Assembly: GCA_903853785.1 (NCBI GenBank)
Contig: CAINUM010000063.1
Location: 2,974 to 66,973 of the forward strand
Source: Candidatus Magasanikiibacteriota bacterium
GTDB lineage: Bacteria > Patescibacteriota > Patescibacteriia > Magasanikbacterales > GWA2-37-8
Direction: 5' to 3'
Length of the DNA stretch: 64,000 nucleotides
Below are positions 21,558 to 21,885 of this stretch, one piece after another. The translations under genes and the position numbers were made by a program. The notes under the pieces were generated by a model, which was given only the letters and a program-made list of their open reading frames with translations, was not told where the DNA came from and did not search any database. Numbering within the stretch: the stretch's first letter is position 1; every line of letters begins with the position of its first letter.

Positions 21558-21566
21558 TAGTGGGGC

Positions 21567-21595
21567 TTGACAGAAATATTTTTTTCTGCTATTAT
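21567..21595 (+). promoter_or_regulatory. consensus sigma70 promoter inside the rpsJ-rplC spacer
   Basis: TTGACA-17nt-TATTAT is followed by a roughly 290-nt leader with four stable hairpins: CCCGATTTAGTCGGG, CACCCTCTGGGGGTG, TGTGCAACCAAAAGTTGTGCACA and CTTCCCATCCGATGGGAAG. Confidence 0.55.
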
Positions 21596-21885
21596 TAGCC
21601 CACAAAGCCAAGCAGTGCCAAGTAAATAAGATTTGTCCCGATTTAGTCGGGGGTACAAAAAACATTTACACAGCAAAATTTTGGCCAGGAGATTAAGATT
21701 TTTACCAAATAAAAAACTAAAGCCATCTATAAAGTTCACCCTCTGGGGGTGAATAGTGTGCAACCAAAAGTTGTGCACAAGAAGGCTAGAAACAAGAGCA
21801 CTGAAGGATTGGGTTAAACAGTGTTATTGCTTCTAGTTTTTTGTTAAATAATTAATTCAGTTATCTTCCCATCCGATGGGAAGCA

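Follow-up and report, generated by a model that had tools for sequence, protein, structure and literature searches.

Among the systems described so far, the one closest to the locus considered here is the leader of the Escherichia coli S10 operon, an RNA that interacts with the ribosomal protein L4 and in which a terminator hairpin and a U-run near the first start codon are accompanied by translational control (PMC3616713); a survey of 20 new ribosomal leaders includes none from Patescibacteria (PMC7247131). Against this background we have analyzed a stretch of 64,000 nucleotides from a Candidatus Magasanikiibacteriota bacterium (contig CAINUM010000063.1; hereafter, the window), with attention to the spacer that separates rpsJ, the gene for S10, from rplC, the gene for L3. 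In the candidate phyla radiation genomes are reduced, ribosomes are unusual and regulators are few, and to our knowledge nothing is known about how its members balance the synthesis of their ribosomal proteins. We estimate at about 60% the probability that the spacer specifies a cis-acting leader RNA, be it an attenuator or a translational regulator, that controls the rplC...secY operon. A full-text literature search returned no ribosomal-protein leader and no rpsJ-rplC RNA described for Patescibacteria; as far as we have searched, the RNA is thus a candidate for a family not described before, and the ribosomal-protein leader is itself a known kind of regulation.

The L3 and S10 proteins assign the window to Patescibacteria, with a Candidatus Magasanikbacteria metagenome-assembled genome as the nearest named one. 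The sequence of the window is present in ERZ1426637, and the samples behind these contigs are from groundwater and sediment, e.g. of the Hainich and Rifle sites. An L3 genome scan and an S10 metagenome scan yielded 85 Patescibacteria loci (S10 identity 65-90%), with 75 S10-L3 loci from other phyla serving as controls. Whole-spacer MAFFT alignments misalign the middle of the spacer, and anchored analyses in Python were used instead, together with three partial covariance models: R1 for the 5' domain of the AT-type members, R2 for a compact hairpin seeded with GC-type and type-3 members, and R3 for the helix P5 (the three subtypes are defined below by an internal loop). At E<0.01, R1 matches 26 sources, including eight sequences outside its seed, and R2 matches 27 while also hitting AT-type members at the R1 positions; taken together, both models recover 52 of 86 Patescibacteria sources. 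No locus has more than one of these matches, all of which fall between S10 and L3 on the coding strand, and R3 finds a further conserved module in 34 sources on the plus strand (E<0.01), scoring 50-64 bits against at most 28 bits on the minus strand, i.e. two to three times higher. None of the three models matches the 75 loci from other phyla beyond chance, nor does the 64-kb window hold a second copy of the element. Since covariation supports both the 5' hairpin and P5, the comparison with relatives proposed in the original prediction comes out in favor of a conserved RNA. The search of Rfam 15 that had likewise been proposed gave no such support: at the gathering score no model matches the spacer in the window or in 20 related and control loci, and at E<=10 the spacer attracts only chance-level matches to unrelated families. 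This silence, which excludes the curated ribosomal-protein leaders and riboswitches, is uninformative with regard to the E. coli leader family, because no Rfam 15 model matches the E. coli S10 leader itself either.

The spacer is structured and set apart by its position. It measures 328 nt up to the first in-frame ATG of rplC (21886) and 343 nt up to the ATG at 21901, in agreement with the roughly 330 nt originally described, and the minimum free energy of its fold (21558-21900) is -99.3 kcal/mol as compared to -72.7 +/- 5.9 kcal/mol for shuffled sequences (z=-4.5; none of 100 dinucleotide shuffles equals it), the minus strand giving a similar z-score. The ATG at 21901, which is conserved in relatives, is the more likely start of rplC: two relatives (L002 and L081 in our numbering of loci) have the upstream ATG in another frame, and in the window it is probably unused. 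No open reading frame of at least 40 amino acids was found on the plus strand of the spacer. Behind it follows an uninterrupted cluster of some 20 genes and 10 kb in the order L3-L4-L23-L2-S19-L22-S3-L16-S17-L14-L24-L5-S14-S8-L6-L18-S5-L15-SecY, which extends to 32033 and in which no intergenic gap exceeds 38 nt, thereby leaving the rpsJ-rplC spacer as the only site for upstream control of the cluster. The premise that S10 is normally followed directly by L3 holds only in part: in loci outside Patescibacteria the gap runs from -3 to about 480 nt, with 220-476 nt in Flavobacterium and Chitinophagaceae, and it is long (115-617 nt) in nearly all Patescibacteria loci.

The first of the two conserved modules, the 5' hairpin, is matched by R1 only once in the whole window (70.4 bits, E=1.5e-11). 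In an alignment fitted to the models (A7), 89% of the cells in its stems are paired, 13 of 14 pairs are changed on both sides and none of 500 shuffles does as well; a second fitted alignment (A10) gives 92% of cells paired and 8 of 10 pairs changed on both sides, again with none of 500 shuffles reaching its score, the slid controls for these alignments reaching 37-57%, and an independent anchored count arrives at 91% paired versus 62% in shuffles. Even a loose structural pattern of the hairpin, which turns up approximately once per 64 kb of shuffled sequence, is present in 47 of the 74 spacers, whose length is about 300 nt. At the core of this hairpin, flanked by a co-varying stem on one side and by an invariant U-A pair and the stem P3 on the other (with a tip of 4 to more than 70 nt among the members), lies a purine-rich asymmetric loop that divides the family into three subtypes: AAGA/AAAC in the AT-type, to which the window belongs, AAAGA/AAAC in the GC-type and AAAGU/UAAC in type 3. 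The last base of the 5' loop strand and the first base of the 3' loop strand are A and A in 32 distinct sequences, U and U in 12 and mixed in none, which indicates a specific non-Watson-Crick pair. As a candidate site for protein binding, this conserved loop is the obvious choice.

The second module, P5, is a terminator-like hairpin matched by R3 in the window at 21778-21850 on the plus strand only (60.6 bits, E=9e-12). In a plain MAFFT alignment of 25 sequences that had not been fitted to any structure, 90% of its cells are paired as compared to 36-52% in slid controls, and 11 of 18 pairs are changed on both sides. Its base is conserved even in sequence, as GGCUAGAAG...CUUCUAG with the variants CUGGAAG/CUUCUGG and CCUGGAA/UUCCAGG, whereas the upper 8-12 pairs co-vary. 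G.U pairs occur at this base in 33 of 33 sequences and thereby fix the strand, for the opposite strand would present A.C mismatches. The inverted repeat CTAGAAG...CTTCTAG was also considered as a DNA operator, a notion that we discarded inasmuch as the variant CTGGAAG/CTTCTGG pairs only as RNA, through G.U, and anything from 36 to 121 nt may separate the two halves. The hairpin has a free energy of -15 kcal/mol in the window and of -15 to -65 kcal/mol across members, and is followed by six or seven U in AT-type members and by CUUUUCGUUU or a similar run in the other subtypes. From P5 and its U-run to the ATG of rplC there are 2-90 nt overall (12-89 nt in the first set measured), with nothing but AT in between in L108, seven bases in L106 and about a dozen in L003 and L093. 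Being a stable hairpin with an immediate U-run, placed between the transcript start and the first gene and with no promoter behind it, P5 has the layout of an intrinsic-terminator attenuator. Among relatives in general, a hairpin with U-run precedes rplC in 31 of 74 spacers versus 4 of 74 shuffles. The original prediction had overlooked both P5 (a hairpin of about 50 nt plus U6, 21784-21842, and the largest and most conserved of all) and the outer stems of the 5' hairpin. The four hairpins that it did name are all present (21637-21651, 21738-21752, 21757-21779 and 21865-21883), the first being the tip of the conserved 5' hairpin and the other three varying between lineages. As a separate observation, repeat-like insertions with CACGAAT and ATTAGTG motifs occupy the tips of both P3 and P5 within the same leader in two loci (L084, 1100-1170 and 1260-1340; L089, 2930-3000 and 3100-3180), which suggests a small mobile repeat that targets hairpin loops; repeats of this type are also found downstream in L101.

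The same hairpin lends itself to a simpler account, namely that of a passive boundary that senses nothing: P5 and its U-run would be a terminator, or a processing or stability hairpin of the RNase III type, that ends the tuf-rpsJ transcript (leader included) and lets a fixed proportion of transcription through into rplC, and the 5' hairpin would merely stabilize the 5' end or help folding. In favor of it, P5 is long and almost perfectly paired, hairpins with U-runs are enriched before rplC among relatives, a similar hairpin followed by UUUUGUUAAA stands behind the tuf promoter (19830-19868), and no antiterminator has been found. Nevertheless, we deem this account rather unlikely. Terminators usually drift freely in sequence, and a plain one needs neither the conserved base GGCUAGAAG/CUUCUAG, nor a conserved alternative partner for its GGCU strand, nor an invariant internal loop with non-Watson-Crick covariation.

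How the leader is transcribed probably differs between clades. The promoter that had been proposed just behind the rpsJ stop is present, agrees with the consensus in 11 of 12 positions, has an extended TG and is one of the two top-scoring among the 18 promoter-like sites that a scan of 5 kb returned; the transcript would start at about 21602-21604. In 19 of 22 AT-type relatives, TTGACA, a spacing of exactly 17 nt and TAnnnT lie 31-52 nt 5' of the AAGAU motif. In contrast, a comparable promoter between rpsJ and the element was found in 0 of 25 GC-type and type-3 members, in many of which the hairpin begins 29-60 nt past the rpsJ stop. The promoter thus appears to be real but specific to the AT-rich clade of the window, which argues that the conserved unit is the leader RNA and not a free-standing gene. 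Since none of the 25 members of the two other subtypes has a promoter there, the ancestral arrangement was probably that of an intercistronic element inside a rpsJ-rplC transcript, and the gain of a promoter within one lineage would have moved the boundary between the transcription units. The proposal that rpsJ and the L3 cluster form separate transcription units can therefore stand for the AT-rich clade at most. The terminator that had been placed upstream of rpsJ (21146-21169) is a G+C-rich hairpin devoid of a proper U-run and does not appear in the list of our terminator scan. A promoter of rplC inside or behind P5 was likewise sought and rejected, there being no room for one and the -10-like TAGTTT being missing in GC-type members. 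With the U-run so close to the ATG and no space for a second promoter, the rplC cluster must be read through P5; together with its fixed place before rplC, this requires the RNA to act in cis on that gene.

An independent small RNA had been offered as the alternative. On this reading, a gene of about 235 nt that possesses a promoter and a terminator, and whose RNA acts in trans or as a housekeeping RNA, would just happen to lie between rpsJ and rplC. In the clade of the window a consensus promoter and a U6-7 terminator do bracket a conserved RNA, so that an abundant discrete RNA is to be expected, and small RNAs derived from attenuators are known, e.g. rnTrpL (PMC7968998). As the main function, though, this is improbable, and a version with its own promoter is valid at most in the clade of the window: the other subtypes lack the promoter altogether, position and orientation relative to rplC are invariant, the U-run reaches the rplC start in several members (2-14 nt from the ATG), each locus has a single copy and the rest of the window lacks any, and no Rfam small-RNA family matches. 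Two observations concern the surroundings of these promoters. Read-through transcripts from rpsJ can pair GUGGGGCU...AGCCCAC at 21560-21603 (plus strand), thereby enclosing the leader promoter, and in L108, L090, L085, L091, L001 and L003, too, a hairpin separates the promoter from the end of rpsJ. In the region 19799-19868 (plus strand), the tuf promoter (TTGCAA-16-TATAAT with TG) is followed at once by a 12-bp hairpin at 19830-19858 and then by the same tail that follows P5 of the rplC leader, and this hairpin and tail may represent a second attenuator or a 5' stabilizer before tuf.

Returning to the cis-acting leader, the way in which it might work is suggested by a strand that is common to two helices. 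Between the two conserved modules there is a linker with an AGGAGA box, kept in most AT- and GC-type members and lacking as a separate box in type 3, and then the helix P4, which encloses zero to two variable hairpins (in the window, 21735-21753 and 21756-21779, two of those named originally). The GGCU strand that closes P4 is at the same time the foot of P5. An AGCC partner for P4 is found in 22 of 31 loci, with co-varying extensions, and compensated variants exist in L128 (GGCC/GGCC) and L097 (GACU/GGUC). When the nascent RNA is folded to minimum energy with its end in the P5 loop, 26 of 28 members have GGCU paired upstream; when the entire leader is folded, 26 of 28 have it paired downstream, extending P5 to the U-run. 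An intrinsic terminator is expected to be inefficient if two to four pairs are missing between its stem and the U-run, and the choice between P4 and P5 is therefore a plausible control point.

From what the comparison shows, namely conservation, structure, strand, position and promoter distribution, we infer the following mechanism, including its termination step, the P4/P5 switch as control point and its effector. In the clade of the window the RNA would begin at its own strong promoter (~21603), and in other clades it would form part of the rpsJ-rplC transcript. The loop (A)AAGA/AAAC of the 5' hairpin would be the putative protein-binding site, and the expression platform would be the GGCU strand, pairing either upstream with AGCC (P4) or downstream as the base of P5. 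With the P5 base closed, hairpin and U-run would terminate or pause transcription, and in those members in which P5 touches the start codon the landing site of the ribosome would be occluded as well, giving a dual control as for E. coli L4; with P4 formed, the foot of P5 would remain open and favor read-through and translation. An operon-encoded ribosomal protein in excess over free ribosomal RNA (rRNA) would then bind the leader and favor termination or occlusion, thereby closing a negative feedback loop. As to the candidate effector, we rate L4, which precedent suggests (PMC3616713, PMC7247131), somewhat above S8 and L3; the L4 or L3 of the original prediction is a matter of pure analogy.

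Several results weigh against this mechanism, or fail to fit it. P4 is its weakest part, being short, more conserved than co-varying, and better than shuffles at p<=0.05 in only 6 of 31 cases. No stable antiterminator was found that could rival the 15-20 bp of P5, of which P4 displaces only the bottom four pairs, and P5 with U6-7 in the AT-type resembles a strong constitutive terminator, an odd thing to find before essential and highly expressed genes. A scan of E. coli 16S, 23S and 5S rRNA for a mimic of the loop, by pattern plus stem (AAGAU/AAAAC), produced two poor hits and none convincing, and R1 and R2 found nothing in an E. coli rRNA operon. Finally, the AGGAGA and CCAAU boxes have no place in the mechanism and are unexplained. 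The latter lies near the start codon, where a hairpin and a CAAUGAC box (Table 1) have equivalents with G(C)CAAUGAC in L081, L082, L086, L002 and L085 and a related GCGACCAAUCCGA box precedes the start codon in type 3; CAAT occurs 8-30 nt before the ATG in 21 of 74 spacers versus about 7 expected. We had also entertained a leader peptide after AGGAGA, which was dropped for want of a conserved start codon or frame (GC-type members have none at all), and a strong antiterminator AGGAG:CUUCU, whose mere 5 pairs would have to compete with the 15-20 of P5.

An arrangement in which an aptamer-like domain precedes an expression platform, with the GGCU strand common to P4 and the terminator and with conserved unpaired purines, also brings to mind a riboswitch that would subject the operon to a small molecule or ion, such as a growth-rate signal. 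We consider this highly improbable: the conserved nucleotides amount to one simple internal loop in a hairpin and not to a multi-helix junction, P4 contains only variable or absent hairpins, no riboswitch family of Rfam 15 matches, and the known leaders of such ribosomal-protein operons all bind proteins (PMC3616713, PMC7247131).

The putative leader is a concrete and testable candidate for the balancing of ribosomal-protein synthesis in the candidate phyla radiation, located at a single choke point before some 20 essential genes. The existence of three clear structural subtypes and of a co-varying non-canonical loop pair provides a ready-made mutational test, and R1, R2 and R3 can be used to annotate the RNA in metagenomes. 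Its interest is moderate in general and higher for those concerned with the biology of the candidate phyla radiation or with ribosomal-protein autoregulation. A more ambitious version is conceivable, though we hold it to be rather doubtful: an autoregulatory RNA present throughout Patescibacteria, with which a ribosomal-protein leader would for the first time be described from the candidate phyla radiation, and in which one protein-binding loop (perhaps an S8 site akin to helix 21, or an L4 site) and one attenuator with a four-nucleotide P4/P5 switch would govern a fused S10-spc operon of about 20 genes (L3 to SecY). In the AT-rich clade it would in addition have acquired its own promoter and give off an abundant RNA of about 235 nt that might act in trans.

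Table 1. Coordinates, in the window, of the putative rplC leader and its flanking genes.
Feature	Position	Strand	Remarks
rpsJ (S10), upstream gene	21213-21557	+	Open reading frame and translation; TAG stop, ends at 21557
Promoter, sigma-70 type	21567-21595	+	-35 TTGACA (21567-21572), 17-nt spacer, TG-extended -10 TATTAT (21590-21595)
5' hairpin domain	21607-21685	+	R1 match at 21604-21707; covariation
P1	21607-12/21680-85	+	Outer stem of the 5' hairpin
P1b	21616-18/21673-75	+	Part of the 5' hairpin
P2	21622-27/21664-69	+	Co-varying stem flanking the internal loop
Internal loop	AAGA 21628-31 / AAAC 21660-63	+	Part of the 5' hairpin
P3	21632-21659	+	Variable tip, the originally named CCCGATTTAGTCGGG
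AGGAGA box (Shine-Dalgarno-like)	21687-21692	+	In single-stranded linker; A-rich tract behind it (21693-21720)
P4	21721-21787	+	AGCC (21721-24) paired with GGCU (21784-87), UCU (21726-28) with AGA (21780-82)
P5, terminator-like hairpin	21784-21836	+	Conserved base GGCUAGAA...CUUCUAG
U-run, then GUUAAA tail	21837-21842, tail to 21848	+	Directly behind P5
Downstream hairpin CUUCCCAUCCGAUGGGAAG and CAAUGAC box	21865-21883 and 21884-21890	+	Equivalents in relatives
rplC (L3), at the head of the cluster presumed to be controlled	21901-22608	+	More likely start, ATG at 21901 (MKFIL...)

Some further observations were made in the window and in the collected loci. Within the cluster, the gene for L29 is absent from its usual place between L16 and S17 (26573-26586; 12-nt gap), as is that for L30 between S5 and L15 (30297-30306; 8-nt gap), the loss of L30 being known for the candidate phyla radiation; L23 (23285-23827) is extended at its N-terminus by about 85 residues, which are rich in Lys, Ala and Glu and include the His-rich stretch HADHEDHEGHDHSAHE. 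Upstream, two seemingly non-coding, G+C-rich stretches stand out on the plus strand (17340-17740 and 18700-19075) in a genome of about 37% G+C. Both lie behind sigma-70-like promoters (TTGATT...TATACT at ~17329-17357, TTGACT-17-TATACT at 18703-18731) and end in near-identical CGACUAAU(C/U)C(A/G)AAGGAGUAGUCCGGCGC, with an open reading frame of 301 amino acids between them; they may be paralogous structured RNAs, although neither gave a match to Rfam, tRNA or transfer-messenger RNA (tmRNA), and the search of the window found no tRNA or tmRNA. Among the control loci, the S10-L3 spacers of Flavobacterium (~390-405 nt) and Chitinophagaceae (~260-336 nt) may contain a different, undescribed leader; they are not matched by R1, R2 or R3 nor, in those tested, by Rfam, the loci with long spacers being L030, L034, L037, L047, L065, L073, L077 and L080 (~2600-3000) as well as L016, L031, L035, L036, L048 and L050. 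The closest relatives from the genome collection (L001, L002 and L004) are labeled as uncultured Gammaproteobacteria, probably wrongly, because in gene order as well as in the proteins S10 and L3 they agree with Patescibacteria.

When set beside the E. coli S10 leader (Zengel and Lindahl; Fu et al. 2013, PMC3616713), the RNA shows a likeness of layout. In both, a structured region of about 170-240 nt follows the promoter, a hairpin and U-run stand shortly before the first start codon (P5 at 2-90 nt here), the downstream hairpins are conserved and the upstream ones variable, and a long ribosomal-protein operon that includes rplC and rplD is the target of control, presumably so in the present case; a dual transcriptional and translational control is plausible here too, L4 in E. 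coli promoting termination, with NusA, and lowering translation. The differences are no less clear. The E. coli leader lies upstream of rpsJ and its family is confined to Gammaproteobacteria, whereas in every locus the present element comes after rpsJ and before rplC; the conserved parts are the HD loop and HG, which overlaps the start codon, in the former, and the internal loop and terminator base in the latter; and R1, R2 and R3 do not match the E. coli leader (L162) at E<=1-10. The suggestion of an autoregulatory leader therefore survives in so far as the RNA is conserved, structured and strand-specific, has a promoter at a fixed distance in its clade and resembles the E. coli S10/L4 system in layout, but the idea that it is an E. 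coli-type leader relocated behind rpsJ has to be abandoned. Two resemblances of detail do not alter this. Over 11 nt, the E. coli attenuator and the GC-type members end in an identical tail (UUUUCGUUUAU), probably by chance, given that the U-run is not conserved even within Gammaproteobacteria (PMC3616713), and the AGCC...GGCU shared by the E. coli hairpin HC and P4 was judged a coincidence.

The internal loop invites comparison with sites of protein binding on rRNA. Its likeness to the S8 site (helix 21 of 16S rRNA and the spc operator) is partial. Both are helices with a small A-rich internal loop, reading AAG-N on the 5' side and N-N-A-C on the 3' side (A595 A596 G597 U598 / A640 U641 A642 C643 in E. 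coli; AAGA/AAAC or AAGU/UAAC here), with a G that could pair with the C of the loop and an A where the S8 site has its invariant A642, and S8 is encoded in the operon. The S8 site, however, is an asymmetric 7-nt loop with the triples (G597-C643).U641 and A595.(A596-U644). Compared with it, the asymmetry of the two strands is inverted here (4+3 or 4+4 unpaired nucleotides as opposed to 3+4), U641 is replaced by A, U598-A640 by A.A or U.U, and the A596-U644 pair is absent (PMC4176348). In the 16S rRNA of E. coli, the one compared, R2 has no match. We also rejected a resemblance of GGCUAGAAGC and AGCCAUC.UAAAG to what we take to be the L11-binding region of 23S rRNA (GGCUUAGAAGCAGCCAUCAUUUAAAG), since AGAAGC is a hairpin loop in 23S rRNA and a stem strand here, the elements follow one another in a permuted order and the operon does not encode L11; a likeness to the flanks of 23S helix 99 was dropped because the 3' side varies between species.

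Attenuators with a conserved terminator stem have been described before. The stem of P5 recalls the helix HE of the E. coli S10 leader and the rimP leader, in which L4 and NusA, respectively, act on the hairpin. In the rimP leader the unusual conservation of the terminator stem was read as recognition by NusA (Naville and Gautheret 2010, PMC2965389), but operon, sequence (GGGc...gCCC) and lineages are others, and an upstream conserved hairpin is lacking. The infC-rpmI-rplT leader of Bacillus subtilis (PMC1865079) resembles the present RNA in that a ribosomal protein, L20, attenuates its own operon through a leader of about 200 nt outside Proteobacteria, and differs in its defined choice between antiterminator and terminator and in its mimic of the site that L20 binds on rRNA. 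As regards position, the nearest counterpart is the candidate L4 leader of Archaeoglobi (Eckert and Weinberg 2020, PMC7247131), which likewise lies directly upstream of rplC-rplD-rplW-rplB, with rpsJ elsewhere or upstream, and whose ligand is likewise assigned by precedent only; it is archaeal, and the structures are unrelated so far as can be tested, there being no Rfam 15 match at E<=10, if that motif is among the models. The moved boundary between rpsJ and rplC bears on the evolution of the S10 operon and of L4-type control, and the resulting arrangement parallels that of archaea, where the L3 operon has a leader of its own.

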